Below are positions 1 through 35,803 of a stretch of DNA of 36,815 nt, one piece after another. Origin of the DNA: Seison nebaliae (Eukaryota). The notes under the pieces were generated by a model. It did no database searches. It was not told the DNA's origin and worked only from the letters and a program-made list of their open reading frames with translations. A program made the translations under genes and the position numbers. Where the stretch lies: positions 1 to 36,815 of the forward strand of contig JALJEE010002092.1 in assembly GCA_023231475.1 (NCBI GenBank), read 5' to 3'. Each line of letters starts with the position of its first letter. Within the stretch, counting starts at the first letter, position 1.

Positions 1-500
1 GCGATTCTATTACTTTCGTTGAGTTCGCGGAGGACGCCGTCGATATCCAAACCAAATAACCAGGGACCAAGGATCGTACCTTGACGGACTCCTGAGTTAA
101 TTTAGAAATGAATACTGGAGCAGTGATCGTGAACAACACACCCAGTGGAATTACAAGAGAGGTGAGCGAAAAATCTGAGGATGGGATATTGGACGAGTTG
201 ACGCACTAGATAATCAAAAGCATAAGAAACGTTAACGGAATCGAATGCCTTTGTAGCATCAAGAAAGAGAAGATGTAAAGATAGTTTCATTTCCTTGGCA
301 ATACTTATAGCCGAACGGAGAATGAGAAGGAGAGGATAGGTGCCACGACATGACGATCGATAGGCGAATTGTTATGATGACGAAAAGAGTACATTCCGAT
401 ATCGGATCAAAATGAGGTTCTCGAATACTTTCAGTAGGAACGAAGAAATGCAGATCGGTCTGTATGAATTTAACGAGGTTTGATCGATATTCGGTTTCTT
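1..500 (-). mobile_element. Degenerate non-LTR (LINE) retrotransposon reverse transcriptase fragment, running off the left edge of the window
   Basis: Minus-strand translation KKPNIDQTSLNSYRPICISSFLLKVFE..SSS*QFAYR..LFLDATKAFDSV..HF*INSGVRQGTILGP contains the YRPI, QFAY, LDxxKAFD and GVRQG motifs, with in-frame stops. Confidence 0.9.
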
Positions 501-1312: not shown

Positions 1313-1895
1313 ATGGTTACATTTCCTAATTTTTTGATACTAATAAAAGTATGTTAGGCAGAGGAAGCTAAAGTTAATCCAAAAGCATTTCCTTTGGCAG
1401 ATGCCACTTTATCAAAGGAAATTCTTGATCTTGTCCAACAGGCCAATAATTACCATCAATTAAAGAAAGGAGCGAACGAAGGTTTTCATTTAATTTGAAA
1501 TTTATTTCTTTTCTAACGAAATTTACCATTTCATTTAAATTAGCAACGAAAACGCTAAATCGAGGAATATCAGAAGTAATTGTTATGGCTGCGAATACGA
1601 ATCCAATAGAAATTCTTATGCATCTTCCCCTGTTGTGTGAAGATAAAGTTAAATTTTGAAAATGTTAATTAAAACTTTTATTTTATTTAAAGAATGTTCC
1701 ATATGTTTTCGTTACTTCTAAACAAGGTTGGTTTTTTTTTCAATAGATTTATTTTTAATTTTCTTCTTAGCTTTGGGTCGAGCGTGTGGTGTTAGCCGAT
1801 CAGTGATGGCATGTAGTATCACGAAGAATGAGGGCTCTCAACTCAAAAATCAATTACAAGCACTCCAAACGAATATTGAGAAATTATTAATTTGA
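1313..1895 (+). CDS. SNU13: SNU13/15.5K (NHP2L1), L7Ae-family U4/U6 and box C/D snoRNP protein; 5 exons
   Basis: Exons 1313-1315, 1358-1481, 1544-1647, 1693-1726 and 1771-1895 give [68 protein letters not shown]. Confidence 0.96.
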
Positions 1896-1963
1896 ATGAA
1901 AATATTTAAGGAATTGTATTTTATTATATATATTCATTAATTGTTTTTTCATAAATTTCTTTT

Positions 1964-3668
1964 TTACATTATAATATCAGAAGATGGTGTGATACTTCCA
2001 GTAATAACATTAAATATCCAATTACTATAATCCATCATATTAGTTAATCGACCTTTACCAATATCTTCACGCACTTCATAATCGGTAAAAGAGACCATTC
2101 CAATCATTCGCCAAGTTCCAACTTTTCCATTATAACTGACAATTGGAGATCCGATATCATACTTGGAAATTTAAAAGTAAAATATTTAGAAAAAATAATT
2201 TTAAGGAAAAATATCTAACTCGACAATTTTGTTCTAGTTGATCGTTGATGGATGGCTGTTTTTCCGATTTCGAACAAAATTCATGTTTGCTTAAATAAAA
2301 TTTACATTTAGAACGTTCCACTACAGTTATTGGATAAAATCGTTTTAAGAGATTGGTTATGGTAACTGTGGGTCGTCCTATTAAAAAATTGAGGAATTTT
2401 AATAATTATTTAGAAATGGAGATTATACGTTTAATTTTAACTTGTACCTTTCCATCCAACAACAAATGCCTCAGTTCCCTTTTCTGGTAATCGAGTGAAT
2501 GGCATCTCTGGAATATTGGGAGGAGTAATTGTCGGAATTTCGATACATACTGGACTCATAATTTGAGGAGGTACCGATTCGCTAACTTTTAAGATAAGAA
2601 TATCATTTTGAATGTTCTCATGAATTCGTGGTAACTGAATGAATGGATATTATTCCGTTTAAATTAGAGAAAATTCAATAACATGATACGCTTTCGATAC
2701 CGTTGAATATTTTTTATTGGAATTGTAAGAAATATCATTTCCATCTTTAACATCTGTATATATTCTCCATTGTAATTCAGATTTAGTTTTAGGAAAATAT
2801 CGATTGATTATGGATAAGACATTCGCATAACACGAGTAGGATGTCAGAAAATAATCTGAATGAATCATTGTGGCAACACAATGAGTTAATTTCAGCGTCA
2901 TTAAATCATTCGGTGTTCGTTCAATTCGTCCCTTATAGAATGAAATTTTTTCGATTAAAAGTTATCAATCAGTTCATGAAAAGAAAAAATATGAATATTT
3001 ATTAACATAGATGACTAATATTCCCAACCAAGGGAAACCATCTTTAGCTTGATAGCCACAACTTGTTGAATCTATTAAACTGAATCCATTTTCTTTTACA
3101 CCTACGCCACATTCTCCGACAATCGTTTGCAAATCTTAAGAACAAACGAAAAAAACTACAAATGTAATTGAAATGTAGTTGAATTAACATAGTTCGTGAT
3201 TGTTTTCGGTACCATCACATTCTCTAAACGTTTGATGAAAGAGATAATCGTAATAAATTGAACACCAATAATACCCACCCGCTACACAGGAGAACATCAA
3301 TTGTCCTTCACGTTCAAATGGAAACTGGCAAGTTGAATCTACGATATTTGTTGATGAAGGAAATCATAAGAATTTTAATAACTTCGACAATATAAATAAT
3401 TGTTGGATCCAGGAACATATGTTTCATCTAAACTACACCACGGTTCTCTAGCTTCACCTCCATTCGTACAATCATGTAATTGAGCATCTCCATAATTAAA
3501 TGGAATTTTACATTCCGCTATGATGTATAAAATATAATAATTTAATATATATATATATATATTTATAAATAAGTTTGTCAAAAAAGAATAAAACGAACGT
3601 GGAATTACTGATTTGGTAGAAAATGGTTTCCAAATTAGAAAGAGAATTAATAAAAAAAATATTTTCAT
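1964..3668 (-). CDS. Secreted protein with two fibronectin type II-like repeats and a catalytically dead trypsin-like domain; 8 exons
   Basis: Signal peptide MKIFFLLILFLIW; FN2-like motifs CKIPFNY..PWCS and CQFPFE..YWCS; trypsin-fold motifs FPWLG, CVATMIHSDYFLTSYSC, NDILILK, PVC, VVGW, CRYDIGSPIV. Donors at 3598, 3382, 3188, 3006, 2682, 2441 (or 2447) and 2219. Confidence 0.8.
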
Positions 3669-3813
3669 TTTAAAATTTATTCAAAATTAAAAGAAAAGTA
3701 AAAAAATATGTCTTTGGAGAAGAAAACTTTCATTAAAGTCCTCCATAAATATTGTCTGATGTTGGCATGAGAACACCATAAAATAATTTTTACTGGTCTT
3801 TTCTCACCATCTC

Positions 3814-5304
3814 CTACGAAAATAAATAGGCATACTTGAACGAAAAATGACGATCGATCGGTGTATTATTAATTGTTCCATTTATACTTCCATTAATCCA
3901 TCCATTATAATCGACGACTTTCGTTAAACTAATTTTTATTGAACAAAAACAAATTTCATTTTACACTGAGAAAAACATTTGTAGGGCAGAAAAATAACCG
4001 AGCATATTTACAATCGAATGTAAATTGTATGATAATTCCGATGACACTAAACCGTTTTGATGATGAATCATAAATGATGAAACTATTTCCTAAGTTATTC
4101 TGGGAGGCGATAGAATAAAAGAAGACGTTTGAGAAAACTAACGAAACATAAATTTTTATTAATTTCATGATCAGATAACCAGTAGTCGGATGTTATGCAA
4201 AATTCATGAGAGTAAAGAGTTAAGTGGCCACATTTCTCATTCGGAATGACTCGGTAACTCGTAAACTTAATCGATTGATTCTTATCAGTTTTTGTCCATT
4301 CTTTTTAATAGAATTTAATCGAAAAATTAAAAATTTCTTAATAGTTATCTAACTGAATAATCCTTTGCCAACAAGATATCCTTCGGTATTAGGTGAAGGA
4401 ATATTGGAAGAAATGATAAAATCTCTGTCGTTTGGAACATCTTCAGTTTTAATTAAACAAATCGGAGTAATCTCTTCTGATGAATAATATTTGATTAATG
4501 CGATTTCATGATATCGGTTATTGTAAAGTGGATGCTGAAAAAATAATACATTGTAATAATTAAGAGAAAATGACGAACGATAATCACCGTCTGGACTTGG
4601 GAATTTTTCCCATTAATCGAAATGTAAAGATAAGAATTAGATGATGAAATATTGGAATAAATTAATTGCTCATCCGCATCTCGGAAACATTTGACATTTG
4701 TCATTATCCATTCTTTATCGATAACAATTCCATCGCATCGATTGACATTGGTGGAAATTGTTTTATTATTATTTAATGTAACAGAAGCCATAATTGTAAT
4801 AGAGACGAACCATTTCCAAACTCCATCAATCTCACCATATTTCTTCACCGGTTTTATTTCAATATCTTCCTTACCACAATTCTCGTTGACATAATGGAAA
4901 ACTAATTCTATCAATATCATTCCAATCAACATTTATATGTAACCTTTTCTTGGACAGTCATCGTTGGCAAATGAGAGATAAGGCGAAACATAATCGATAA
5001 AATATGATGTGGATGAACACCAATTATCAACACAATCAAAGAAATATTTATCTTTGTAATAGAATGGAAATTGACATTTCACTTCACAAGCCAATTCCTC
5101 CTCTTTCGATGATAAACAAACTGCCGTTTCATCAACAGATCTCATGCAAATTGATTGCATTCTGTTATTCCCAGAGAAAATTGACTTACAATCATCTTCA
5201 ATCGAAAATGATTATAATTGAAGTAGGAATTGAGAGTACTAACTATTAGTAACTAATTCACCTTTAACGACGAATAAGAAAAAATAGATGAAAAAAAAAT
5301 TCAT
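3814..5304 (-). CDS. Tandem paralogue: secreted FN2-like plus inactive trypsin-like protein; 7 exons, 3' end less certain
   Basis: Signal peptide MNFFFIYFFLFVVKG; CQFPFYYKDKYFFDC..WCS; WKWFVSI, CDGIVIDKEWIMTNVKC, HPLY..EIALIK, PICL, CFNNLGNSFII, TKVVDYNGWI. Donors at 5243, 4943, 4578, 4353, 4142 and 3998. Confidence 0.75.
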
Positions 5305-5380
5305 GTTCCTTCTTAAATAAATTGTTGAAGAAAAAATGAGAGAAAATAATTTTATTTCCAGAAAACAAAAAGAAAAACGA

Positions 5381-5925
5381 TTATTGTACAATAAATGATT
5401 GACGAACCATTTTAACACATTTATCATAATATTCTCCAATATCGTCACTTCGTTCAATCAACAAAATACAGGAAGTCTTCTTTGAACCAATTGCAACGCC
5501 CATGTCCTATTTTGAACAGTTGAACGGTTTTAATGAGAACAAAAAAAAACAAACTTTTCTAGATGGCAAATAAATGTAGGGAATATCTCTGTCCTCTAAA
5601 TATATGGGAACGTGGGAATATGTATCGATTGGAGAGACATCACCAGCAAGCACTACTAGACCTTTTCCACCTTTCTTTATCGATTTGAGACAATCTCTCA
5701 ATCCTTGTGTTACTAAATGCTCCTCATTGGCTATTCATCGAAATATTCAAGATATGTCTACAATTAACACAAAAATTAACCTGCTGTTATCAGTTTATAC
5801 AACCGTTTCGACAATTTCTTCGTAGCCAACGGACTTGCAATTTCATTTATATGCTCAACTTTTTCTTCATATGTTAAATTGAGTGTGTCTTCAGTAACTT
5901 CAGTCTCGTCCTCAACTTGTCCCAT
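5381..5925 (-). CDS. NHP2: NHP2, H/ACA snoRNP subunit (L7Ae family); 3 exons
   Basis: Spliced product MGQVED..TYEEKVEHINEIASPLATKKLSKRLYKLI..KGGKGLVVLAGDVSPIDTYSHVPIYLEDRDIPYIYLPSRKDMGVAIGSKK..; introns 5731-5780 and 5507-5554. Confidence 0.93.
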
Positions 5926-6479
5926 TTTTCAACATATGCTTTTTTGATATAAAACTAAAAATTTAAAATTCAAAAATTTACAATCTATCTTATACTTCAT
6001 CTTAATATCAAATTGACAGTACAATATTTCCTAATCTTTTTAAAGTATTGGAGGAAGATTGAATATCAAATTTGATATATTATAAGATACTGCATTTTTT
6101 ATGAATTAACCAATCGATCATAGGTTTTTTTACTCTTTTCTTTATACATACTATGGTTTGTATAATGTATTGTTAGCTATTATTCGCATACGTTCACAAA
6201 ATGACCTAATGTTACCGAAGATATTATCAAAAAAAGGAAGAAGTTGGTCAAACGACCACAGAAATTAAATTCATTTACCTCGACAACCTATGAATTAGCG
6301 CTTAAAAGTGCATAGATTTTTGAAGTAACTATGTAGAAAAAATTCATTATTAATTGTTAACCTATATTCAAAAAATCAAACAGTTTGGATCAATATTCAT
6401 GATTTTATCAAGTAAAATGTAACGAGCATTTTTTAGTTTTTTCTCAATTTTTCTTGAAAAAATACGCTTACTACTATCG

Positions 6480-6805
6480 AAGGATTCCACCGGTCGAATA
6501 AAAATCAATGGGCACATTGGAAACGAATATGGAATTAATAAAGGCGTACGTCAAGGTTCCGTCCCCGCCCCTTGGATATTTGGGAAAATATTTGATGATG
6601 TAATAATTCCGTGTAATAACCGATTCTCGTTTTCATTGGAAAACTATAATTATCCCGCAGTTCTTGCATATGCTGATGATATAGTCATCCTCGCAGCCTC
6701 ATCAAAAAATCTGAAAATGGTTTATGATGTAGTGGTGAGAAGAATGAGCCAGTGCGGAATTGAATGTAACAACAGGAAGTCCAAAATCATAACTAATCGA
6801 ACGAT
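6480..6805 (+). mobile_element. Isolated non-LTR retrotransposon RT fragment (GVRQG to YADD region)
   Basis: Translation STGRIKINGHIGNEYGINKGVRQGSVPAPWIF..LAYADDIVILA..GIECNNRKSK, with no flanking full-length ORF. Confidence 0.88.
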
Positions 6806-6930
6806 TTTACCTCGCTTATTCTTTATAAAATTTCTAAACGATATTTTCGAAACATGCAGGAGAGAGAAAAATGAACTCTTATGCAAAATGCCCTGTTAAT
6901 GCATGAAATATTTTAATTTTTTAAGATTTT

Positions 6931-7017
6931 TTTGCACTATCTTTAAGAGCTTGAATAGGGCTATTTTGTGATATCTACCCTTACAAAAGATACTACATAG
7001 AACAGAAGTTATGACCT
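6931..7017 (+). repeat. Dispersed repeat copy 1 (partner at ~36005-36091)
   Basis: 6951-7017 aligns ungapped to 36025-36091 at 49/67 identities by hand count, with similarity extending about 20 nt upstream. Confidence 0.75.
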
Positions 7018-7295
7018 GTTTTATAAGAACGTAAAAGTGTCCGATTACTTTAAATTCCTACTGTATTATGTATAACTGGTAAATTGAAAAGCTCGAAACG
7101 AATATAATAAAATTCACTTATCATATCGAATAGTGAATTAATGTAAATTTTCCAATAATTTCAAAGTTTTCTTCACTCCTTTTATATAAATATTTCAATT
7201 AATTTTTTAAATTTATTAGAAATTATATATATATATATATAAGAATAATAATAAAGACGAATAAATTTAGTCGTATTGAAAATATAATAAAAATA

Positions 7296-8174
7296 TTAAT
7301 CATAATAATCATCCAGTGAAGCGTCATTAACAGTAACTATAACATGAGTCATTGGAATGACTTCAGTGTCTGATTTATTATGGAAAAAATTATTTCCAAT
7401 AGCATAAAGTAGAGCAGGCTCTTTAAACCAAAAACCAAAGCCATATTTTTTCGCCAATTCATTAGTATCATATGCTCCAAAAGAAGTTTGCATTTTAGAA
7501 ATGTGTTTATCTATTAAATTGTGTGAATGAATAATAATTGGATCTAATTTATAATTCGTCTCACATGTTATCGGAGAGGAATGTGCGAACGTATACACTT
7601 GCTCATTATCTTCCTCAGTGTCAGTTAGAAAACGTATCACAAAGGTAAGATTTGAATATTTTTTCGATAACTCAGATAATTTGATTAATCCTCCGAAATA
7701 CTTATAATTATTTTCATAGAAACCATGCTGATATTGAACAAATGAATAATTTAGTGGATGTTTCATCGAAATAAATAATGGGCTGTTTGATGCTTCTTCC
7801 GGTAATGTTATTGTTTCATATTTTTGTAAAATTTTACCGTTTTCACTTTTGACGAATGCTTTTGACTTCGATTCGATATTGTTCAGCAGATAAATAACTA
7901 CATCTTGTGAATTTTGTCTGTCAAAAAATTTTTTATTACAATTCTCATACGACATGAGATAAGATACATCTATTGAATGATTATTGATTAGTTCTAGTTT
8001 AAAACCGAGACAATCAACCATTTTCAAACATCTAACAGCCACCAGAGAGATATACCAGTCACCACATTTATCATTTCTCCAATTATTGTAATAACTCTGA
8101 AATTTTATAACATTTTTAACACCAACTATTCCCTCCAAAGTGCATAACGATAATATAATTAATGATAATAACAT
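7296..8174 (-). CDS. Intronless 292-aa predicted secreted protein of unknown family
   Basis: Long ORF in AT-rich DNA with a hydrophobic N-terminus MLLSLIILSLCTLEG and an N-terminal Cys cluster; no family recognised. Confidence 0.7.
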   Translation of the reverse strand: MLLSLIILSLCTLEGIVGVKNVIKFQSYYNNWRNDKCGDWYISLVAVRCLKMVDCLGFKLELINNHSIDVSYLMSYENCNKKFFDRQNSQDVVIYLLNNIESKSKAFVKSENGKILQKYETITLPEEASNSPLFISMKHPLNYSFVQYQHGFYENNYKYFGGLIKLSELSKKYSNLTFVIRFLTDTEEDNEQVYTFAHSSPITCETNYKLDPIIIHSHNLIDKHISKMQTSFGAYDTNELAKKYGFGFWFKEPALLYAIGNNFFHNKSDTEVIPMTHVIVTVNDASLDDYYD

Positions 8175-8679
8175 CTTGGAAAAAGGGTAAGTATTTAATT
8201 AGTAAATCAGAAAGTGAGTGTATAGAATGAAACAAAAATTTTCGACTATCCTTATTAAATTGAAAATATAATTGAAATTTATATTTACATTTAACAAATA
8301 AGAGTGATGAGATTTCGATATAACGAATAATCTAATTTGTCCACAAAACTCTATTAATAGTTAATTGAATTAGTTATGTCCATTGATTGTAATCAATATG
8401 CAGATAAAACGTTTACAGATGGAAATGGGTAGGGAATGAATCTGTCAAAAAACCACATGAAAATGACCTTTGGAGAAAAGTGATATAAAACGGAGAAATA
8501 ATTGCGATTTCTATAGAACAAAAAAATCACATTAGGTTGAAGGAAAACTATAGTTTTTTATGAAACCTGTAAAAATCATGAAAAGTTACTGAAATTAGTT
8601 GAATTTTACTATATGAACTAATTTTTTTCAGGAAATTTATGCATTGAATATGGTCTTTTTACTATGATAAATACTAGAA

Positions 8680-9300
8680 TTTACAAAAGTACGTTAATGG
8701 TTGAATTTTATCCATAAACTTTGACAAAATTGCTCATTAAATGTGCATCGCATTTTGTGCCATATCAAACGAAACAAGAGAAATCCCAAAATTCTTAAAG
8801 ATTCTCAACATTTGAAATTGTTTACAATTTTTTTCCGAACGAATTATAGAACATACTCTGCTTGAATATAAAATTTTTGAACAAATTTTACCAAATTGTT
8901 ATAATCTCCTGGACCATGTTATTAATAAAAATAGATTTCCTGTCACGCACTCACGTCGTAGAAAAATTTGATATCAAAGGGAAATTTGGAAGTTTATTCA
9001 AAGTTCTACATGTCTGCCGATCTAAATAAGAACGGAAATTCGCATCAGTTCTTAAACTGTTTCTAAATAGCATAATTGTTCCTTACAAAATTGTTTATAT
9101 TAAATTCGATCATCGATTAACAAATTGCATTTTGTTCGACACAATTCATAATCAACCTATTTTATTCATTAATATTTTTCTCGAGCAACAGGAAGATGGG
9201 GAGTTATAAAAATTAATTTGATCATACTTTATATTATTTCGGAAACATATTGTGGAGGAAAAAATGCTTCACAGATTTCAATGTCGAATAATTGAGGAAA
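8680..9300 (-). mobile_element. Possible highly decayed CACTA/EnSpm(CMC)-like DNA transposase relic
   Basis: Broken frames read LRTDANFRSY..LNKLPNFPLISNF, NNMVQEIITIW and LMSNFVKVYG*NSTINV. These resemble the RTDxxF / DxMH..LG..W / FVxLYG..TxNVH blocks of animal CMC transposases, from memory only. Confidence 0.4.
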
Positions 9301-9423
9301 GCATTAAAATTGAGAATTATTCAAAGAAAGATCGAGGAGGAGGTATTTCATAGCCAGTATGGTCTTTATTTTGTTTTATAAGTTCTTCAGACGTGTTGAA
9401 TATAATAGTAGAGTCTAGGACAT

Positions 9424-9480
9424 AAGAGCCACGATACAAAAGAGCCGCCGACAAAAGGGCCACCGACAAAAGAGCCACGC
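9424..9480. repeat. Four imperfect 14-15 bp direct repeats (AAAAGAGCCACCGAC-like), probably a transposon subterminal array
   Basis: aagagccacgatac / aaaagagccgccgac / aaaagggccaccgac / aaaagagccacgc; GC-rich relative to background and adjacent to the MULE relic. Confidence 0.8.
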
Positions 9481-9659
9481 AGACTTTGATTTTCTTCGAA
9501 CAGGAGAAACATAAAAAGCCAGGTTCATGATTTGACTCGAGCCCGGTCATGAATTGGAATGGATTCCTCTCAAAGTGAAGTAAAATAAGTAAAACACAGT
9601 ATAGGACTGTACAGGATTATCATGCACGGATTTTTGTTATCATAAATTTACAGAGAAAT

Positions 9660-10050
9660 TTACAGATAATGTTGAACCCGAGTTAAAAAATTTTCATCAC
9701 AATGCTCCGTTAATTTTGGATCCGATTTTTAATTATTTCCATCAACAATTCATTGGTTATCGGGATATTCGGAATAATTTGATAAATAACCATTTTCCCA
9801 TTCATGTCTCGAACAATTTCGAAGCAATGCGGAAAAACAGCACTCCTTCTATTACTAATAATATTGCGGAAATTTTCAATAATTATTTCAATTGAATATC
9901 CTCGGGTTAACAGGTAGATATATTCCGATTCTTGGACAACATCGAAGACGTTGAAACATACATTGAGATAAGGATTTTGGAAGCAGAAAGGAATAAAAAT
10001 CTAAAAATGAAGAAAACACTTACTGCTCATTTGAAAAACTTAACTGACGC
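9660..10050 (+). mobile_element. Decayed Mutator/MULE transposase C-terminal fragment
   Basis: Translation PIFNYFHQQFIG..HFPIHVSN..ITNNIAEIFNNYFN*..DIFRFLDNI matches the MULE pattern YF..xIG / FP..WN / TNNxxE / IxxFI; contains stop codons. Confidence 0.6.
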
Positions 10051-11078
10051 ATTTGATACGATGGAGTTTTCATCAAATTTCGAAGAAATAAAGAAAATTG
10101 TATGAACTATCTATATATAGTAAATTTTTTATTTATTTTCTCAAAGTTGCATATCCGTTTATGTATTCAGTTGATATTCTGTTTATGGTAACATTTAATC
10201 AACTTTACATTCAACGTACATGTCTTTATAGATTAACAAATAAGTTTCTCGACTTGCTAAAATTGCATAAATTATCTTCGTCGGAGAATCAAATTCGTGG
10301 TTATGTCGATAAATTATGCAGTTCTGGAAGCATTTCTTCTCACTCTTCATTAGGACCATCTTATCTAATTGTAAGAATCATTAACCACAGAAAGTTAGTC
10401 AACTCGTAGTAGTCAACTTATGTTCGTAAATATTCGATTGTCGAAATATGCACGACTTAGCAGATAATTCAGCCAAAACGAACATTCAGCATATAAAATT
10501 AGTAAATTAATGATTAAATGAACTTATCTAATGCTATACAAATTTTTAGTGAAAAATAAATTTTAGATCCTAATATATGAGATATGGTTTGAGGTCTCTA
10601 AATATTATTGATTTTTTGACAATAGCAATTGAATAATTATTATCGAAAAAAAAATTTGAAATTTTAACATTTGTTTGTGTATATTTCGAGTAAATTTTCA
10701 AATATGAAATTTGAAAACTTTATTTCGATTTTCAAAAAATGTTCAATCATGTTGTAAATTTTCATAATTTTACAGTATGATTAAATTATATTTAATAAAT
10801 TAAATTAAACTTGACCTTCATTACATGAGAATTGCAGCAGCTTACTATTTTTCTGAAATATTTTCTAAAAACAACAATATTTTAGAAAAGATTATAAATG
10901 TTCTACAATTTCGAAAGAGAGAGAAGTTATGTAATCTTATTTGTAAATTGACGAATTTATCAAAATATCTACTTCTTTTAGCAAACAACTGATGTCCGTT
11001 TGTTTTGAAACAGTCGAATTATAGAATTATATTTATCTGTTAGAATATCTATTTGTAACTGTAAGTTTAGCTATCGTG

Positions 11079-23100: not shown

Positions 23101-26100
23101 CTCACGTTTTCATCATAATAAATCTGATTGGAAAGAAGGGTGTGGGAAATAGGAAGAAAGTATGGAATAAATTCGGATATCAAACTATTTTGTTTTGTTC
23201 GAATCGATTTCGATGATGGTGAATGATTCAAAATAATTAGAAATACATATATTTTTAGATATCGTATACATCGAATAAAACATTCGATAAACAATAGATT
23301 AAATTGAGAAGATTAATAATGGATTGAACGAAATGAATTATAGAAAGAAGATTATTTTCACGATAAATTTCTTCTTTTTTATCAATCAAAATGACAAATA
23401 AGAATGTTACTCTATTAATATCAGTAGACATTTGGTAGATGATTTTCGTAGATTGAGAAGCATTTCGTATGATCGTAAGAAGAATGATGTCATGTTTATG
23501 CATGCACAGAGGAAGATATGTCAGTTTTTTGATGGTGAGGAGTTCGAGGAACGAATATTAATTCATTCAGTTAATTGCATTTCGAGACACTAATCGAATG
23601 TATTGGCGGGGTAAACAACGTGAGGAGGAAATCGTATGAATAGGAGGTTGGAGAAAAATAATATAAGAGAACATTTCTATTCAATCGAACAGACCTAATA
23701 TCAGTTTCTGATGGATAGAACGGTTAGAGAACGATATTTATTTGAATTGAGAAAATTAGATAATCCAGTTAATCGTAGTGGAAACAAAATGTAATTGAAA
23801 ATTTGTTTAGTTATATTATTTTTACTCGTCTCCAATTTCACTGGCTAATGGCATTGTTTGGTGAATGAAAATGAAATTAAATGAATTACCACCAAATTCA
23901 AGAAATTTTTAGTTCGATATTCCTCGTTCGTAAAATATACCGATTATTATAAGTCATAATAATAATATGTAAGAAGCGAACTCCATCTATCGGACATAGA
24001 AAAGCAGAGCAAACATAAATTCTAGGAAGCCAAATAATATTTTTTGGTGGAATCGAAAAATTATCGTTTTCGATGTGTACATAATTTGGTGGGACCTTGG
24101 CATTTCGAATTTTTACATACAATAAACTACTTCTGTTCAACTGAAGTTGAGGAATTTCATAAAAATTCTACTATGATGGAATAAAAAATACATACATATA
24201 TATATATATCTATCATATATATCTTATATGATATATTATCCATATTAAGTTCAATTCCTTTAAAGTAGAATTTAATGGTTGGTTTTCCTGGAGTATTCCT
24301 ATGTCTGAAGTATATGAATAAATTATTAGAATTGCGTATAAAATCTTTCACAATAATCATAAAAAATGAATTTAGGGGAAGATGAATGGAGAAACATATT
24401 TACGAAAATTTTCGACCAATTGATAATCGGTTCGAAACATTCATATTAACCATTTTTATGAATTACTCAATTTTCATTGGTGAATATAGAGAACAATATG
24501 ATCTTCTGATCCTACTCGATGTTCAACCAGCTAGATGTCATAAATAACTCATCGAGGATTATTGAGAATAATTCAGCGAAATTTGAAATTGAGCGAGAAA
24601 ATAAGGAAGAGAGGAATATTGAAGAATGAATAAAATTGATTTGATGGGGAAATGATGAATTGAGAATCTGTTCACGTTTTCTTCTGTCGTTTACTATTTA
24701 TCGATCGATTGACATGGAAAAAGATTTTCGTGAAAGAGAAAAGAAAGTTGTATGGAAATAAACGATTATCATTAAGATAATATAAATTTTAAGTGAATTC
24801 AACTATCTCACTTAAAGTGTCTTCATTGTTTCCAATTGTCGATCGTTGTCGAGGAGGAATTAAACCAGATTTTCATCAAACTTGTATACTTATATATTCA
24901 ACATAAATATAGAAATTTATTTGACTATAATGGAAGATACATCTCCCAATCATCATCATCATCAATATTGTTGTTGTTGTTGTCGTTGTTATTATTAATA
25001 TTTAATATTATTATCTCAAATGAAAGTATGTGACAATGCAAGAAATAAAACAACATTTCAATGATGAGTGATACAATTGGAGTTGTATTGTTCTCCTAGT
25101 TTAACCGGTTGAGAAAAACGGTTCTCTACCTTCTTTCCTGGACTATCAATTCGATTACACTTAATAGTTGGTGAGAGAATTTTTGTGTTATTCAGATAAT
25201 TCAGAATAAGAAAGAATATTGCTCATCGTTTCTTACTAGAACAATAATGATTGATTCGACTAAATTAAAATAATTATTATGGCGAACAAATAGATACATT
25301 ATGGATGGATACATTAGGGAAAGCATGTTAAATCGATTAAATTTGTCAACAAATTCTCATGAAGATAAATGGAATCTCATATGTCGAGTAAATTCGTTCT
25401 CGATCATACACCTCCTTACCATTGGCTTAGGGATCCAAAAAATTATTTTTTTAGAAACTAATTACGTCAGTAGTTCGATCAAGTGGAAATTCCATCATCG
25501 CCTTCCACCATTTCTAACGACATTGCTTACTGGATTAATATCTTGTGATAAATTTAGTGTGTCGCCTGATTTTTATCACAATCCGATGTTACTCGATTCT
25601 GATTATCTGAATAGTGATAGATGAGGACGATTATGAGATGATCTCTTCCGCATGAAAGAAATGAAATTTTGTCAAATATTTTCCATTCTTTTTTTGAACA
25701 TGAGAAACGAACTCTCTTTTTTTCTTACTCGTCAACTTGTTATCTAAAGAGAAGAAGAAAGAAAAAAAGATAAAAAGAAATGTTCAACTAAACAAAATAA
25801 GGGACAGATATGGATGACGTAATGATGAAAGTGATACCATCGAATTGATGAGTATTTTGATTTCCTTATCTCTTATTATGAGGTAGTTACCTGAATTCGA
25901 TTCTTCTGTGTATCTTATTTCTCATTCATTTCTGTTAAACTTCTCCATATTTCTTTGTATTCATACGTCATCTGTCAACATTGGGATCGACGAGTATTCG
26001 TTAACAAACTTCGAAGTTGTAGTTAATGTAAAAGGAATGAAATAGAGGAAGATGTGTGGAGGTATAAGGATGAAATTGGATAAATGGCAACATCATTACA

Positions 26101-29100
26101 AGTTGATATCGTTATTATCATTTTCAGAATCGATCAAATTGTCTTTTTTTGGGTGTTTCCTTTTCTTCTGATTATCACTCAACTATTTAATTATTGTTCG
26201 TAAGAGAATCATTGAATTATTAAATTCAATCAGTTATTTTTGAAAGAATTTTATGAAACAAAAATTGACCAAAAAATTGTGTACAAATTCTATTTGTCTA
26301 GCATTTGTAGATGAATGATCATCTTAATCAATCAATATGAATATAAATAACAAATAAATATTAAATACAAATAACTATTCGTTCCAATACTTTATTATTT
26401 ACATATTATCACTGTCGCTATTGTTACGATGATAAGTTCACATTCGCTTTCACTTGTCGATTATGGATGGAAGGTGATGGAAAGGAAATAATTTTCATTA
26501 TTTGCTTTCAATAAATAATTTCAATTAAAAAAGAAAACGAGTAGAAACATTTTTTATTGTTTTCATAATATAATTGAATTCTTTTTCTCGTGAATTTGAA
26601 GATGAAACCAGAACGAAAGGAAATTTGATGGAAAAATGAGAAAAGAATTTTCAGAATTTTACAAAGTTTTTTCGGGAAGAACAATAAGTTTTTGGTGGGG
26701 AAGAATGAGAATGAAACGGAAGAAAGCTCTTCCCGAACATTTTCATAATTAGAATATCAGTCAAGTGAAAAAACGAAGAAGAATGAAAAAGTGGAAGTTC
26801 TAGTAGTTGAGAATCGATTAAATTGGAATAAAATTAAATGGAAGAATAGCAATTTCATTTAGTAATGAAAATTCATTTTCAGAAATGAGAAAATTGAATT
26901 GCTTCCTTCAAATCTCGTTCGTTGAACTTCACTTTAATATTTATGACAATTCTCACTTTTGTTATTGGAAGAAGGAGAAGTTGAAATAAAATCGAATTGA
27001 TCGATTGGAGGGAAAGGAAAGAAAGCGAAAGTTCATTCGAATGACTGATGGAAACTTAATGGAACTTTGAAAACTAAGAAATTTTGAAGAAACTTTCTTC
27101 AAGAAACTTATGAAATAGTTTCTTTTTTAATCTTCAAGTCACGTTTAATAGCAACGTTCATATTTTCATCGTTTTCATCGTCGACATATATCGTGAAAAA
27201 GGTGGAGGAGATGTGAGAAGTTAGTTTGGCAGAAATTGGAAGAATTAACGAAACATTAAAGATTTATTATAGAGAAAGTCGAGTTTCTTGTGTTTTCACG
27301 GAATATATATACGGTATATACATAATAAGATTGACATCAGTAACGAACGATCAGATATAACGGAATTAATTGAAAGTGTTGAACGAAGAAGAGAAATCTA
27401 AATGAGAATACATTTGTTTTTCATATGACAATGAGAATAATTCTCATTTTTATGATAATGATAATAATATTCAAAAGATTCTTTTTTAGCTATTGTTTTT
27501 ATGCAAATCGAACATCAAATCTATTCATCATCTATTCGATTTTTTTTTGATGAAAATCTTTACAATTGGAATACGATGACGAAAAGGAGGAATATGGCAA
27601 GGAACTTTCCCTCATCATTTCTCGTTATTAATAATGTTAATCGTTCCACTTACACCTGTCAGTCATCACATTGGAATTTGATGGAACAACAAACGATTAA
27701 ACTGTAAGAGAATTTCTCTTTATGGGAAAATGGAACATTTTAATTATTCAAATGTTTATCGATAAGTACTTCTGTTTGAGTCCCCAATCGTTCCCACTTT
27801 CATAACAAGCTCATTATATTAGAATCAGAAATTACATGAAAATTATAATGAAGTGAATATGGAATAAATCTTTACTTTCCCCTTTTTTGAATGACAAATA
27901 TTCGTGACGATATTCTTCAGATCAGAAAAATATCATTTTCTTTCATACAATCGAATCGAAGAAAGTCGGAACGGCATAATAATTATTAATTATAAAGTTA
28001 GTTGATTTGCATAAACTCATTTGGAGGAAAGAAGAAGTACTGATATGTATTTATATGACAATGCGCATATCATTTTCATATCATGTATCTTACCAGTCAA
28101 TCCCTCCATTTATTAGGTTGACGACTCTATATTTCCTATTGGGGTATAGAGTACCCAGAATGGGAAAGGCCAAAATCGAATAGATGACTGAGTATAAATT
28201 ATGTTGATCTATTCCTTTTCCTGATTGAGAATAAAAACATCAAAAATATTAATGATGACATCGACGTTGAGTAGCAATAATAGAAAGGAGAAAAACATTA
28301 TTCCAATGAAGAATGCATCAGTTCTATCTCAATCATCATTCGTATAAATCATAATCTATGAATATACGGTATTAGTCATGGATACACTATCCGACATCAC
28401 TCTACTTTCCACTTCGTCAAATGAAGAGAAATATAAAAATAATGAAAGATATTAATAGGAAACTGATAATAATTATCATCACCATCATCATAGTTCCACT
28501 CATCTTATCAATAAAAACATAACATCAGTATCAAGTTGAAAATGATACATAAAAATTTAAAAACAAAAAAATAATATCAAAATAATTCGGAGTTGTTCAT
28601 AATTAATCATCATTCATTTATTTTTCTATTATTCATCCATATCATTTCCATATTAGATGAAATTAGATTTCTAACGACTTTCATTGGAATTGATAAAACT
28701 TTTTCATCTACTTACTTATTCACTTTTCAATGAATATATTCCATCCTTTCCACGACGTTCATCTGACGACCAGGAAAATAAATAACTTTCTTTCCACTCT
28801 CTAATGATCGATGCACGTAACAAATGGAGAATAAAGTGAATTTTTATTATTATACATGACTCTTCTTTCATTTTTTATCATATCATTTATTACAAATAAG
28901 ACATCAAATCTTCAATTTTCACTACGTGGTTGAGAAAGTTCTTTCTTCTTATTCGAACTAATAATCTTTACCATTCTTTTTTTATTATTATTGCTTCGTA
29001 TCATAAAACCGATAGGTTGTTCTCCCTCTCAAAATACCCCCAACAAAATCCACCATCAAAAATTTGAGTATTTTAATGATTTTCTTCTTCGTGTTTCTTG

Positions 29101-29595
29101 CCAAGAAATTTTTTTAACTTCGCCAAATTGATAAGGAGAAATTATAATTAAATTATTCTCCAACATTCAGGAACGACAAAACAATTATTCTTTCGCAAAT
29201 TTCCTTCAACAATTCCTGTTAGGATATCAAAATTTTAAGGAGTTTATTTATTGAACACGCGTGACACCTCAAACATTTTTGTCAGACACAACCTCCAAAA
29301 CAAATTCTTGTGCCCCATATCAAACTACGATGATCAATTCTATAAAAATATTTCAAATCTTCTCAAATGTGTCTCATCACAATACATTATCTAACGTTCA
29401 ATGAATTTCAAGTTTAATAAATAGTTTTGAGAATAATGTTGGGGAAGTTGATGTTCTTGCTAGGAAACAACTAATTCTAAATATTTATCAATTAAACTGT
29501 ATGATTTGTAATAAGTTTTTGTCTAATACGAATAATAATTAGATATCACATGGAAAATTTAATAAGTTCTTTGAAAATTCTTTAAAGAGTTGGCT

Positions 29596-30172
29596 ATGGA
29601 GAAAGTAATGTCAAATTTATTAGTTCGTAATTTCCGAAGAATCATAATAAACAACAATACAAATATAAAATGTTATGGAAATCATTTGAAGATATTGAAA
29701 ATAAACATTAATTCGCATCGAACATACAGTACAAAAGGACGGGAAGAGAAGAAGGAAACGTTATGGGAAAAATTTAAGCAATCTTATAAACAGAATGGGA
29801 GAACTTTTCTTATTGTTCATCTTTCCTTAACATCAATGTATTTGGCATCATTCTACATCTTAATCTCAAAGTTCGTTAAGTTTTATTTGATTTGTCTTCT
29901 AATCGTTTCACGAACAAAATAGTGGACTAATGAAAGTTACCGACATTTTGACATGGCTACAGTCGAATGGCGTCATCACAGATTCGTTATATACCAGTTT
30001 AAAGAATAGAGTAGAAAGTGAAAAACAGACGGATAAAAGTCATCAGTTGAAATCGTTTGTTGCTGCATATATCGCTTACAAGAGTATCACTCCGTTTCGA
30101 TATTTGACAACGATTGGAGTAACAACAATTGTGGTTCGTTATTTGAAAAAATATCGATTTCTATTGAAATAG
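29596..30172 (+). CDS. FAM210: FAM210/DUF1279 family mitochondrial membrane protein; 2 exons
   Basis: Basic presequence-like N-terminus, KFKQSYKQNGRTFLIVH, intron 29871-29922, FVAAYIAYKSITPFRYLTTIGVT..VRYLKK. Confidence 0.88.
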
Positions 30173-30616
30173 AACGTTCGTCTCAGTATTCGTATCAATG
30201 AAATTTTGTAATTCTTTCTCTACTTTATCTTTCAGTTCAACAGGAACCATTTCTTTAAAGGAAATTAATTTTCATTTCCAAATAAAAAGTTCAACTTCGT
30301 GCTTTCGGTGTTATTTGCTCGACTAATTTGTCAACTGTCAAATTACTGAATCCTTCTTTCTTTACAATTTCTATGAATATTATTATTATTATGAAATTTG
30401 AATTGATGAAAGAGTCAAATAAAAACCATTACAATATGTTCTCATTTCATCACGCCATCCACTTTCATAGAGACCCTGACGAACGATATCCATCAATCGT
30501 TCTTTTTCTCCCGTATCTTTCAATGAAGATAAAATTTTTGATTTTAACGCTGCATGTGAACTGTTGAAGACATGGAAATAGAAGAGAGAAGATAATGGAT
30601 GAAATATAAACTCCAT
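30161..30616 (-). CDS. ENY2: ENY2/Sus1, SAGA DUB and TREX-2 subunit; 4 exons
   Basis: Introns 30561-30611, 30371-30426, 30253-30295. Product MDSHAALKSKILSSLKDTGEKERLMDIVRQGLYESGWRDEMRTYCNEIVKKEGFSNLTVDKLVEQITPKARKMVPVELK..VLFQ*. Confidence 0.93.
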
Positions 30617-30846
30617 TTCGTTTCGTGTGATTGGAAGAAAGTTACGAAATGTAATTGGAACTTTATTATAGAAGAAATGTTACTTTGAAGTGGATCATTA
30701 AAAGAGAAAGTAAGTTCACCTAAATTAGAGGATGTTTTGAAAATTGGAAATTAATTTCGTATGAAATATTCAGCTAAAAATTCAAAAATCCAAAATCGGT
30801 ATAGTTCAACAATTAATTTTGTGATAGCTAATAAATAGCACTGTTT

Positions 30847-30860
30847 GTTTCCATAGTGAT
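30847..30860. promoter_or_regulatory. Candidate RFX X-box upstream of IFT27
   Basis: GTTTCCATAGTGAT (reverse complement ATCACTATGGAAAC) fits RTHNYY-WT-RRNRAC and lies 35-48 nt before a ciliary gene ATG. Confidence 0.65.
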
Positions 30861-30894
30861 TATAGTTAAAAACGTAAAAATTCTTTAAAGTAAA

Positions 30895-31446
30895 ATGGTT
30901 CATCTTCGTGCAAAGTTAGTTATAGCTGGTGATGGAGCCGTTGGGAAGACTACTCTTCGACGTATGATTACTTCGGATGGGGCCGATTTAGTAAAAGCAT
31001 ATAAACCGACAATAATGACAGAATTATCTCAAAAGAAAATGCGACTTTCTCGATCGGAAGATGCTGTTGAATTCCATATATATGACAGTAGTGGATTGGC
31101 AATCTTTACGAAGTTCAATCAACTAGTTTGGCATAATCCAGACATCTATTTCCTCGTTTATGATGTGACGATGAAGAATTCATTGCGACATTGTGGTTAT
31201 TGGATGCAAAGACTATTAGAGAGTTGTAAAGATCGAGATGCTGTTGGATTCCTGATAGCAAATAAGATAGACCAAGAACAAAAACGTGAAATAACTTATA
31301 ATGTCGGGGATAATTTGGCAAAGAAACATAATTTGATTTACAAAGAAATTTGTTGTTTCGATATCTCAACGATTAATGACTTATTATCAGAAGCGGCAGA
31401 TGTTTATCTTCAACGCTATAAAACGTTCATTAGATATCTTCAATAA
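30895..31446 (+). CDS. IFT27: IFT27/RABL4 small GTPase, intronless
   Basis: MVHLRAKLVIAGDGAVGKT..SDG..K.Y N-terminus typical of IFT27; VEFHIYDSSG and ANKID motifs; no C-terminal prenylation motif. Confidence 0.9.
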   Translation: MVHLRAKLVIAGDGAVGKTTLRRMITSDGADLVKAYKPTIMTELSQKKMRLSRSEDAVEFHIYDSSGLAIFTKFNQLVWHNPDIYFLVYDVTMKNSLRHCGYWMQRLLESCKDRDAVGFLIANKIDQEQKREITYNVGDNLAKKHNLIYKEICCFDISTINDLLSEAADVYLQRYKTFIRYLQ

Positions 31447-31601
31447 CATTACATTGTTCTCTAAATTTATTGTGTATTTACAAAGATGTTCTTTCTTTAA
31501 ATTTCTAAAAGCTTTTTCAAATATTTATATCTTTCCGTATATAACATTTCCCATAAATTTTTTTCTTCACTAAATTCAGAATTCTTTCTTAGTTGATTAT
31601 C

Positions 31602-31614
31602 GTTACTGGACGAT
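31602..31614. promoter_or_regulatory. Possible RFX X-box at the CFAP70 start
   Basis: GTTACTGGACGAT (reverse complement ATCGTC-C-AGTAAC), a 13-bp X-box-like site abutting the ATG. Confidence 0.4.
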
Positions 31615-34600
31615 GACAGATGAAAATAAACGAATTTTGATCAATATCGATTCTATAAAGAATTTGGTTAATATCTTAAATCGAAATTTACTGATAAGTT
31701 TTTCGATTGAAGTACATCCAAAAAACGGAAGGGATCACTTTGGTTTTAAAATTGGAATGGAATGATAAAATTATTGGAGAAACACAAAAAGTTATGTGTA
31801 ATCCGTCGGTGGATGAACAGTATGACCAATTGTTGTATGAGGAGAAACCGATCAATCAGGAGTTTTTCTTAAATATACAAATTAATGATTTGTCATTCTT
31901 TAACGATATTGCTTCTAAACCATTGATCAGTTGAGATATTATTAAAAAATCTAAAATATTCAATTTAATCATTATAGTGACAATTTATGAAATAATACCG
32001 AAAGAAAAAAAACAAAAAGAAGATAAGAGTACTCCTATCGGTCAAATGATAATTTCTTTACTGCCATTCATTATGGGACAAAATCGATTAGATATTCTAC
32101 AACCAATTATTCCCATTGGAAGTAATCCAATTTTACAAAACACTCCCGACAACGAACCTGCAGCTATGTCACTCGTTCTCGAAAGTTTCCAAGATATTGC
32201 TGTCAGATCTTTTCCAACTTCCACCAAACTAACACCTCAGCAACAATTGTCCCCGTTCATAAATGGAAATCTCATGAAAGTTTTTGTTGATTCCTTAAAT
32301 AATCTTCCCGAACAAACTGGTCCCAATGGTGTTTTCACTCTATTTACTAAATTCCCGTTGGGCAAAGATGTTAGTTCTTCACTTTTCCTTCCAATTGATA
32401 TATCTCCAAAAAGAAATGGTCTCTTAATATCATCACAAATGGAGTTCTTCGATCATTTGTCGATTCACAAACTGATCCAAAAGAATTTCGATATGATAAT
32501 ACAAGAACTATTTTGGAGAAATCGGGCTACTACATCACGTTAATATTTTTTCGTTCTTTTAAAGATTACTTATTATTTCGTTTTTAAGAGGAGCGATTCC
32601 ACCACCACCAACCATCGTTACTTCACCAACAGTTAAAAAAGTTGCAGGAAATGAAAGTCCGATGCCTGAAGAAGATTCATTACGTGTTAGTTGGAGAGTA
32701 TTGAAGAATGTTTTCGTCGATAAATTAGGAATGAGCAGGTAGTTTTTGGTTTAACTCTCTATTCACTGAATATGAAATTGAACGTTTGTAGATTGAAACA
32801 ATTCTTACAAGTTAATCGATATTGGCCTTTTGAAGTTATTAAGACATTCCCTACTACCAATAATCGTTTACGAAAAGTTTCATTTTCTTTCCAATAATTA
32901 TTTTTTATTACATTTTCAATTTTAGGATGAGGATGTTATAATGCATTCTGTAATAAAGGTTGATATGGCTCAATTAATATATCCTGGATGTTCATTTTTT
33001 AATTTTAAAAATCATTTCGTTTCATCGAGTTCCATTATTTAGCAACTGTTTTACAAGGTGCTTATCCATTGAAGACTCCATCCGGTAAATTGGATGAGAA
33101 AACCCTTGCGCCAACAGGTAGTTCATTGAACGAAGTTCTCGGTTTGTTGCCGTCGTTGTTTGATAGAAGTATCATTTCAACCGGCTTCGGTTCCAAAAAC
33201 CAACCTTCTCAAGCCAAGGAGAAACTCCCCCCAAAAAAAGTTCTATTACTTACAAAAATATTGTTTAGGTAATATTTATATAATAAAAATTGTTAGTTGA
33301 AAACCGGTGAAGCTCGTTTGACGACTACTGGTGACAAGACAGCTCAACAATCAGGTACTGAGCAGGAGCAAAATGATTATGAAGAATCAGGATGTGTAAT
33401 ACAACTGACAATTGCCATATTATTTCCTATAGTTGAAGAGAGGACCACGGTAGACTATGTGAAAAAAATTGCTGAAATGATTCCACCCAGACCAAAAATT
33501 CCTCTAGCCGTCGCAGATGGAAAGCGAGCTGTTGATGAATTCCACGAACAAATACGGTCAATTTTAGGAACTTTAGTCGCACAATATAAGTTAAATATGT
33601 GTAATATTTGAGTGTTTAAGAAATATATTTCGCAGATCGTTATTCGCAGAACAGAACAAGCTATCTACTGAATATTCAGAGATAATGCAAAGGTTCATAT
33701 TATCATTTATGTTTTAATCTTTTGTCTTATACTGTTAATTTAACAAAGGAAAGAGAAATTACTGTTCGAACTGAACACAAATGGACGATATTTTGCTTTC
33801 AAAGAACAACTAAAATTAACAATAATACGAATCGTTAGAGAGAAATATGGAAATACGAAAAAATTTGCAAACGACGACGAATTACATCGATTTATTGTAG
33901 ATTTATATATCTTCTTAATTGATGAAATGCAGAGTGCCCTCAATAATGAACTAACTGATGAAGAAAAGGTGTTTTTCCTTAATTTCACAATATTCTTATA
34001 GTTCTTTAGAGAAAAACCAATCATTTAGACATACAACGATTGTTGTTATTTGCAAAAGAAGCGGAGTGGAGTAAAGATTACAAATTAGCACATTATTATT
34101 ATAAAGAGGTTAAGAAGTTAAAATCTTTGACATTTTGAAAAGTCTTTTAGCGAATTTTACATGATGAAACTAATCCTGATCTGTGGGTGGATTATGCTCG
34201 AATGGCTCTCGATATTAATGATTATTCAATGGCAGAACAATGTTTTCGCGAAGCGATTTCTTTAGACCAAACACATATTGTTGCATTAACATTACTAGGA
34301 GTAGTATTAATGACAAGACATCGTGTAGAGGAGGCTCAAACATGTCTAGAACGAGCAGTATCATTAGATCCGGAATCTCCTGTAATCATTTGCCTCTTAA
34401 GTTTATATTAATAAGAATCATTGTCGTTATATCGGTTTGTAAGGTTTATTCTTTGAACATGTCAATGATGTGGTTATGGCGGAAATGACGGTAAAGAAAA
34501 GTAGAAAGATTGCCAAAAAATTGTACAGAAAAGAAGTTGTAGAGGCAAATAAAGAATCACAAGAAGTACAAAGTCTCCAAAATTTAACAGTTACTCCTGG

Positions 34601-35803
34601 TTCTCGTCCAGATTCTGGAAAAATTTCGCCTAATCAACGTGCGAAATCCAGTAAATTAGATCGGAAAAGTTTTATTCATTTTGCATATATTTCAACCCGA
34701 TTATAAATAGATCGACCGATTTCCAGAAGTAAAAAGCGACTTGACAAAACTGATAACAGACATATTTCACCAGATGAGAAAGAGATGGAAGTAAAAATGG
34801 AAAATCAAATAGAAGTTGAAGCGGTGAACATTATGTATAAGAAAACTGCACAATTCCTGATTAAGAATCAACTCACTATCGTTATTTTTTAAGATATCAA
34901 ATAAATATCACCAATTCTCTCATTAGTTAATGGAAAGAGCATTAGCACATCGTTTAGTTCCAATGAATCAAGATGGCGATGAGGAAATCTTCAAAGATCA
35001 ACCTTTCCCAAAAAAGCGAACAAGAGAATATGCCATAGAATATTGGTTGATAGTAACCCAAGCAAAATTGCTGAAAAGAGAATGGCAAGAAGCCATGGAA
35101 TCCGCCAATAAAATTTTGAATTTGGATTATACTGTTAATCTAACTAATTGCTTATCATATAAATTATTTTATTTATTTTTTCAGAATCCAGACGCTTGGG
35201 CCTACTTGGGACATGCTCATTTTGGATTAAATGAGATCGACGAGGCTCAAAGTTGTTATGTACGAGTATTGAAATTTAACAAAGATGCAACCGACGATCA
35301 TTTTCTACGAATTCGCTTGGGAAACATATTGTTACAAAAGCAACAGGTTAACATGACGGAATAATTATTAAATTCTCTTATTCTTTCTAACAGTATGAAG
35401 AAGCTAAAGAAACTTTCTTAGCATGCTGTTTCAAAGAACCTACATGTTCCACTTGGTTAGGTGTCGGCATAGCTTGTTATCGAGTTTGATTTTCCTGTTC
35501 TCTTATCATTTCACGATATGTTATTAAGCTCGAATGTTTAACAGATGCTGAAGATGCATTAAGCGAAGCGAATGTTCTAAATAACCGTGAGCCTACGGTC
35601 TGGAGTTATCTCTCGATGATATGTTTGAGACAAAACCGTATTGAAGAAGCACAACAGGCCTTTAAATATTGCACAGATGTTTTATTTATTTGCAAAAAAC
35701 TTTCTAATCAAAGCTTTTAAACTAGATCCAGGAAGATAATCCGGAAATATGGGAAGAAATTGTAGAATTACAAGATACTCTCGGTTTAGAAAAGAAATTT
35801 TAA
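31613..35803 (+). CDS. CFAP70: CFAP70/TTC18, TPR protein of motile cilia; 20 exons
   Basis: A 19-intron model keeps one open frame. Motifs [59 protein letters not shown] repeats and [30 protein letters not shown]. Confidence 0.93.

Follow-up and report, generated by a model that had tools for sequence, protein, structure and literature searches.

In animals, both the GTRAGT consensus of intron donors and the end of the U1 small nuclear RNA (snRNA) that reads it are nearly fixed. In the duplex formed by the two, U1 nucleotide 6 faces donor position +3 (PMC1779574). The matched change at +3 that our survey of the published record found belongs to an intron-reduced amoeba with uniform signals: Entamoeba donors read GUUUGU(U), with 88–90% of them showing one hexamer, and its U1 has co-evolved to ACAAAC (Roy and Bowser, bioRxiv 10.1101/2022.06.08.495308). 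GTT is also more frequent among the tandem donors of C. elegans and Arabidopsis, in which U1 is unchanged and GTT donors are a minority class (PMC1779574). Here, we analyze one contig of a marine animal, the seisonid rotifer Seison nebaliae (GenBank assembly GCA_023231475.1, contig JALJEE010002092.1), in which nearly all of the introns modelled in 10 genes on both strands begin with GTT. The whole stretch, 36,815 nucleotides (nt) long, is called the window below. The S. nebaliae genome is compact (~46 Mb, 31.9% G+C; PMC8351084), and the G+C content of the window is ~30%. The evidence that follows gives good support to the view that donor recognition on this contig differs from what is normal in animals.

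The donors of 53 introns, all of them predicted from frame, homology and annotation, comprise 51 GTT, one GTA (32739) and one GTG (33969). Every modelled intron (53/53) has GT...AG termini and restores the frame on removal, and the open spliced frames match homologues; lengths range from 41 to 81 nt, with a median of 48. Base composition alone does not produce such a count. The share of GT dinucleotides with T as the next base is 0.436 over the window, 0.409 for coding sequence and 0.603 for intron interiors, and the binomial probability of 51/53 is 2e-16, 8e-18 and 1e-9, respectively. An earlier note on this DNA, made from its letters alone, had held that, by composition, A should be favoured after GT as strongly as T; in fact, counting both strands, T comes next 1421 times and A 764 times. 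The background thus favours T, yet the excess of GTT survives it (51/53 versus 0.41–0.60).

The same composition could suggest that recognition is unchanged, selection at +3 having lapsed and T-rich short introns having filled the position. In intron interiors, T makes up 47% of the bases and follows GT in 60% of cases, positions +8 and +9 are T-rich (37/53), and GTT is the favoured valine codon; no avoidance of GTT was found in the coding sequence of the spliced genes (Val GTT 99 versus GTA 49). However, 96% T at +3 against a background of 47–60% (P 1e-9 or lower), next to a position +4 at which T occurs in just 11/53 introns, makes a lapse of selection very unlikely.

The gene models and the two exceptions are the following (window coordinates):

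1313..1895, + strand, SNU13: four introns (1316-1357, 1482-1543, 1648-1692, 1727-1770), all GTT.
1964..3668, - strand, fn2 + trypsin-like protease homologue: seven introns (donors 3598, 3382, 3188, 3006, 2682, 2441, 2219), all GTT.
3814..5304, - strand, trypsin-like protease homologue: six introns (donors 5243, 4943, 4578, 4353, 4142, 3998), all GTT, from the mapping of an NCBI model.
5381..5925, - strand, NHP2: two introns (5780-5731, 5554-5507), both GTT, from the mapping of an NCBI model.
11079..12448, + strand, macroH2A (SNEBB_004056): six introns (donors 11172, 11290, 11445, 11770, 12003, 12226), all GTT.
12834..13287, - strand, Ly6-like secreted protein: one intron (13089-13044), GTT.
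17700..20132, - strand, SALL-like C2H2 zinc-finger gene, 5' end uncertain: four introns (donors 19970, 19697, 18613, 18294), all GTT.
29659..30172, + strand, FAM210 (Pfam FAM210A-B), start codon not fixed: one intron (29871-29922), GTT.
30161..30616, - strand, ENY2: three introns (donors 30611, 30426, 30295), all GTT.
31613..35803, + strand, CFAP70 (mapping of SNEBB_004063; aligns to CFAP70 9ijj_k, E 8e-132): 19 introns, 17 of them GTT.
32739..32791, + strand, GTA exception in CFAP70: CAG/GTAGTT, the only feasible class, junction gap-free against 9ijj_k.
33969..34009, + strand, GTG exception in CFAP70: AAG/GTGTTT with a TAG acceptor; the NCBI model uses GTG 33969.

Thirty-nine of these introns come from NCBI models and 14 from frame and homology (in SNU13, SALL, ENY2, FAM210, Ly6-like and one protease). 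The S. nebaliae proteins SNEBB_004063, SNEBB_004054 and SNEBB_004056, which agree with the window in every letter, were mapped onto the DNA without assumed splice sites, and the GT/GC-AG cuts that yield them were listed. The mapped models gave 20 junctions for SNEBB_004063 (18 GTT, GTA 32739 and GTG 33969), 16 for SNEBB_004054 (14 GTT, GTC 5403 and one junction without a resolved donor) and 7/7 GTT for SNEBB_004056, with GTT at 39/43 junctions of the three combined. Four of the 43 (31402 GTT, 10998 GTT, 5403 GTC and the unresolved gap) were dropped as gene-fusing links or 5' extensions. The models themselves join neighbouring genes: SNEBB_004063 fuses an intronless Ras-family GTPase (30895-31443, +) to CFAP70 (30895-35803, +), SNEBB_004054 fuses NHP2 to two protease genes (1964-5925, -), and one fusion link uses a GTC donor.

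Homologues support the models at the junctions themselves. The spliced SNU13 model aligns with P0042 at 69% identity over 118 aa, gap-free, and its junctions 43, 78 and 89 are gap-free in 137/141, 132/133 and 66/88 homologues; GTT is the sole feasible donor class for the introns of this gene. The NHP2 junctions are gap-free in 81/107 and 90/101 homologues, the macro-domain junctions of macroH2A are gap-free against 1yd9_A, and about a dozen CFAP70 junctions are gap-free against 9ijj_k by eye, with small gaps at two. In CFAP70, a 44-nt GTT intron (32370-32413, +) lies within a stop-free frame of 202 codons, and this open frame is misleading, since the spliced, frame-shifted form aligns gap-free to 9ijj_k. 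The first protease model has Pfam Trypsin and fn2 domains, and the SNEBB_004054 mapping covers 6/7 of its introns. Zinc fingers of the SALL-like gene are split by two of its introns; an upstream N-terminal exon for this gene was sought and not found. The FAM210 intron also accommodates a second GTT, at 29880. The names SNU13, NHP2 and SALL are supported by Pfam domains of the three families. The Ly6-like protein is presumed to be such from the call of the earlier note and the cysteine pattern, and a per-exon Pfam search gave no match. The histone-fold part of macroH2A (11079-11520, +) is very divergent and cut by three introns, and the macro domain is close to that of vertebrate macroH2A1.1.

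Window checks and the mapping of NCBI models placed a donor, of the kind described, at every coordinate that the earlier note had named, and its intron and GTT counts per gene recur in the 53-intron set (SNU13 4/4, NHP2 2/2, macroH2A 6/6, Ly6-like 1/1, SALL 4/4, FAM210 1/1, ENY2 3/3, CFAP70 17/19). Two donors had been left ambiguous, each with a GTT option. The first, GTT 2441 of the fn2/trypsin-like protease, competes with GTA 2447, which is also in frame; the NCBI model uses GTT 2441, so that the protease homologues now stand at 13/13. The second did not turn out as GTT: a donor at GTT 33971 in place of GTG 33969 would need a GAG acceptor, used by 0/53 introns.

A bias of this kind might be produced by the choice of GTT among several options by readers and gene finders, or by an atypical contig. 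To evaluate the freedom of choice, every GT-AG pair lying ≤30 nt from each intron end, 35–100 nt long and keeping the frame without a stop was considered. By this measure, 21/53 introns could also use a donor of a different class ≤30 nt away. However, a single GTN class is feasible in 32/53 introns, comprising 31 GTT and one GTA (P 2e-6 against the strictest background), and 36/53 introns offer no GTA or GTG option whatever; the forced GTA is the one at 32739 that had been singled out before. A parser in which position +3 was unscored was trained on nine genes at a time and applied to the one left out, with its start and stop given; it made 54 calls (49 GTT, 3 GTA, 2 GTG) and recovered 48/53 reference introns exactly, with three non-GTT calls falling outside the 53-intron set. 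A +3-blind gene scan of the whole window found no further convincing spliced genes for held-out testing, and the additional calls and extended gene ends that it produced, which score low and use mixed donors, were left out of the counts. Since the frame-forced introns, the alignments that are gap-free across most testable junctions (SNU13, NHP2, macro domain, CFAP70) and 10 unrelated genes on both strands all agree, an artefact of selection or a local oddity is highly improbable.

Besides +3, the signal is weak but conventional. On the exon side, A at -2 (36 versus 19.2 expected) and G at -1 (19 versus 9.9) are enriched, and A at -1 is not (21 versus 18.9; n = 53). Among the 51 GTT donors, A is enriched at +4 (28 versus 17) and T depleted (10 versus 24), G is enriched at +5 (13 versus 3.5; A 22 versus 17), and +6 shows no G excess (3 versus 3.5) and a non-significant one of T (29 versus 24). 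The best sites had been described as GTTAGT, with A at +4 and a weak G at +5: both preferences are found, but the most common hexamer is GTTAAT (8 versus 2.7 expected), GTTAGT being the second (5 versus 0.55). Donors with a better match on the exon side tend to match less well on the intron side (Spearman -0.33, P 0.02), a compensation also reported of the AG/GU and GURAG donor classes in other animals (PMC11347140). The GT-AG termini, the exonic AG and the enrichment of +4A and +5G are marks of major (U2-type) introns, whereas the +3 purine of the standard U2-type consensus occurs in 2/53. The minor (U12-type) donor motif is GTATCC or ATATCC, and neither is present among the 53 donor hexamers. 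Acceptors are TAG in 27 introns, AAG in 15, CAG in 11 and GAG in none, with AAG therefore more common than CAG, and the branch motif CTRA, in 12/53 introns versus 7.5 in shuffles (P 0.054), is not clearly enriched.

How would U1 meet such donors? U1 ends were scored as duplexes with 52 real donors (the first SNU13 donor, which has no exon letters, was left out) and with 250 of ~610 decoy GT sites of the same genes, pseudouridine being outside the duplex model. In separating real donors from decoys, the standard U1 reached an area under the receiver operating characteristic curve (AUC) of 0.55 (0.47–0.63) and a U1 with A at nucleotide 6 reached 0.79 (0.72–0.85); other models gave 0.79 (AA at nucleotides 5 and 6), 0.74 (G at nucleotide 6), 0.59 (+3 bulge) and 0.49 (shifted register). 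Among GTT sites alone (50 real, 264 decoys), the AUC was 0.66–0.73 for the canonical register, 0.51 for the shifted one and 0.60 for the bulge. In a scan of 15 models, A at nucleotide 6 was the best, and only purine changes at nucleotide 6 helped. The scores do show that the standard U1 would hardly tell real donors from other GTs and that the pairing register is unchanged.

This bears directly on the idea that a standard U1 works one base out of step, in a shifted +1 register or around a +3U bulge, the true motif being GT-T-AAGT. Some human sites are reported to use registers of this kind (PMC9311317), GTTAA is the top pentamer (14/53), GTTAAG occurs twice versus 0.39 expected (P 0.06), A at +5 is somewhat frequent, and the bulge model keeps some discrimination among GTT sites. 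On the other hand, G is enriched at +5 and not at +6, and at -1 G is enriched and A is not, which disfavours the shifted register; with the shifted model at an AUC of 0.49–0.51, we consider an out-of-step U1 unlikely.

The explanation that we prefer is a change of U1 nucleotide 6 from U to A, which would pair with U at +3 in place of A or G. A U1 reading ACUAAC would form three stacked Watson-Crick pairs (G+1:C8, U+2:A7, U+3:A6), a core to which further pairs could be added on the exon side (AG/) or on the intron side (+4A, +5G, +6U). At U1 position 6, A would be without a wobble partner, and for this reason a single base would occupy 96% of the sites, as A and G jointly do elsewhere. The rare GTA and GTG donors would persist through full pairing with the exonic AG; both non-GTT donors are preceded by AG (2/2 versus 12/51 GTT donors), although this difference is weak (P 0.07). 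The +4A preference argues for a single U1 change rather than the double change of Entamoeba, and the pattern on the contig fits the U1 proposal of the earlier note better than either that double change or a shifted register. Branch points have the motif TACTAAC. The best-match donor for the proposed U1, GTTAGTA, is its reverse complement, so the proposed U1 end would contain a branch-point-like sequence.

The window holds no snRNA gene: with E values up to 1 accepted, Rfam gave 0 matches to it. Metagenome contigs were searched by motif for U1 ends carrying A at nucleotide 6; of the 59 loci returned, none was U1-like on reading, and the 20 that were compared with Rfam gave 0 matches; these are chance hits with no bearing on Seison.

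The main competitor is a genome-wide +3U rule with a standard U1, in which +3U would be chosen at a later or a protein-dependent step, by pairing with G of the U6 ACAGAGA box, by an altered U1C, LUC7, PRP8 or SNRNP27K, or by an snRNA modification. In 230 yeasts, donor switches at +4 occurred without changes in the U1 or U6 sequence and track METTL16/SNRNP27K (PMC10581693); in Fritillaria, intron ends changed and m6A was altered with the U1 5' end conserved (bioRxiv 10.1101/2025.08.15.670264); and +3U can add pairing to a standard U6 (Roy and Bowser, bioRxiv 10.1101/2022.06.08.495308). However, U6 pairing as the filter predicts strong +5G and +4U, in contrast with +5G in 13/51 donors and the depletion of +4T. 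Furthermore, the standard U1 would hardly favour real donors over decoys, so that the specificity of the early step would have to come from elsewhere. These precedents weigh less also because they concern +4 or the intron ends and not a clean +3 switch, whereas Entamoeba, with +3U, did change its U1. We therefore regard a rule that leaves U1 standard as possible but less likely.

Several points weigh against the U1 proposal and the rule on which it builds. The AUC test is partly circular, since any model favouring +3U wins, and it does not separate A at nucleotide 6 from AA at 5 and 6 or from G at 6. G at +5 is found at just 25%, and the top hexamer GTTAAT is not a perfect match to the proposed U1. 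Most lineages with changed donors have a standard U1, as Saccharomycotina, Giardia, Trichomonas, Thecamonas and Mamiellales do (bioRxiv 10.1101/2022.06.08.495308; PMC10581693), and Fritillaria borealis, an animal with altered introns, has a conserved U1 5' end (bioRxiv 10.1101/2025.08.15.670264). The NCBI models, although independent of the earlier note, are predictions and not proof of splicing, and the 21 introns with another feasible donor, as well as the analysis of a single contig, count on the same side. Five sequencing runs matched the stretch 10600-20500 in full, none of them recorded as RNA, and four runs aligned to the CFAP70 gene gave almost no coverage and no spliced joints; these outcomes speak neither for nor against splicing.

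On balance, the +3T rule is very probably real and lineage-wide. The earlier note had proposed that donor recognition was reprogrammed genome-wide: on the contig this is well supported by 10 unrelated genes on both strands, while its genome-wide part is an extrapolation from 36.8 kb. Removal by the major spliceosome, genome-wide reach and a U1 reading ACUAAC are three things that we infer. Because U1 has often stayed standard in the published lineages whose donors changed, the claim that the purine-to-U switch at +3 is read through a U-to-A change of U1 nucleotide 6 stands at about even odds. We give a probability of roughly 0.5 to the full proposal, in which intron-rich Seison would have passed from GTR to GTT genome-wide via a single change of U1 nucleotide 6, with tens of thousands of donors converted, as the first case of U1/donor co-evolution in an animal. 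The +3 switch may be older than Seison itself.

If true, this would mean that a very large number of introns to convert is no bar to rewriting the code shared by U1 and the donors, and sequenced rotifer relatives would make the path datable, be it through two U1 genes in transition or through a protein change that came first. Should U1 be standard, a near-absolute +3U rule would be enforced despite a U1 mismatch, which would be equally interesting. Seison donors also make it possible to ask, in a natural system, which factor reads +3, and gene prediction programs whose training set is other animals will put donors of the Seison lineage in the wrong place. The literature search, which left figures and most subscription journals outside, turned up no description of introns starting with GTT in Seison, in rotifers or in another animal, and the portions consulted of the S. 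nebaliae genome paper (PMC8351084), the Pomphorhynchus genome paper (PMC7310846), a paper on lamin (PMC10125929) and two surveys of introns (PMC10639083, PMC11347168) hold no donor logo for these taxa; an unnoticed or unindexed earlier report is possible, a donor logo being derivable from public annotation.

The rest of the contig is very compact, except for ~9 kb (20200-29500) that lie upstream of the SALL-like gene and hold no convincing gene; this may be a regulatory region or a first intron of unusual length, the frame having an AG before it at ~20143. Three adjoining intronless genes (13366-17144; eIF2B-family subunit, TMEM17-like and UTP18-like) lie amid intron-rich neighbours, and a 300-codon intronless frame (7299-8198, -) has a hydrophobic start and no Pfam match. 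Reverse-transcriptase fragments at 105-371 (-) and 6423-6896 (+) are likely decayed LINE-type elements. Protein searches with the window proteins turned up no close relatives.

Compared with known systems, Seison introns resemble the standard U2-type AG/GTRAGT ones (PMC1779574; PMC9311317) in their GT-AG termini, -2A/-1G, +4A, +5G register and exon-intron compensation, and differ from them in having T rather than A or G at +3 in 51/53, G at +5 in 25% and AAG acceptors in 15/53. Human atypical donors that use a shifted or bulged U1 (Roca and Krainer 2009; Roca et al. 2012, as cited in PMC9311317) begin with GUU as in Seison, but they need AAGU displaced by one base, whereas Seison has its G at +5 and not +6. 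Mastigamoeba (U1 ACGUAC) and the Saccharomycotina with +4U also switched a single position, in their case +4 and mostly without a U1 change. Fritillaria borealis is likewise an animal with a genome-wide change of splice signals, in which, however, the terminal dinucleotides are altered and the U1 5' end is conserved, while Seison keeps GT-AG and switches one internal position. With Entamoeba, Seison shares U at +3 (51/53), the canonical register, +5G and +6U, and the two would work in the same way if the Seison U1 has changed. Unlike Entamoeba, with U at +3 and +4, it switches +3 alone and keeps A at +4, with no dominant GUUUGU (GTTTGT in 1/51); its donors are degenerate (top hexamer in 8/53) and not uniform, and it is an intron-rich animal (53 introns in 10 genes) rather than an amoebozoan. 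In the literature surveyed, as far as the consulted portions extend, Entamoeba is the one +3U lineage with its U1 examined and, since that U1 matches the donor, it would provide by analogy a precedent for the U1 route in Seison.

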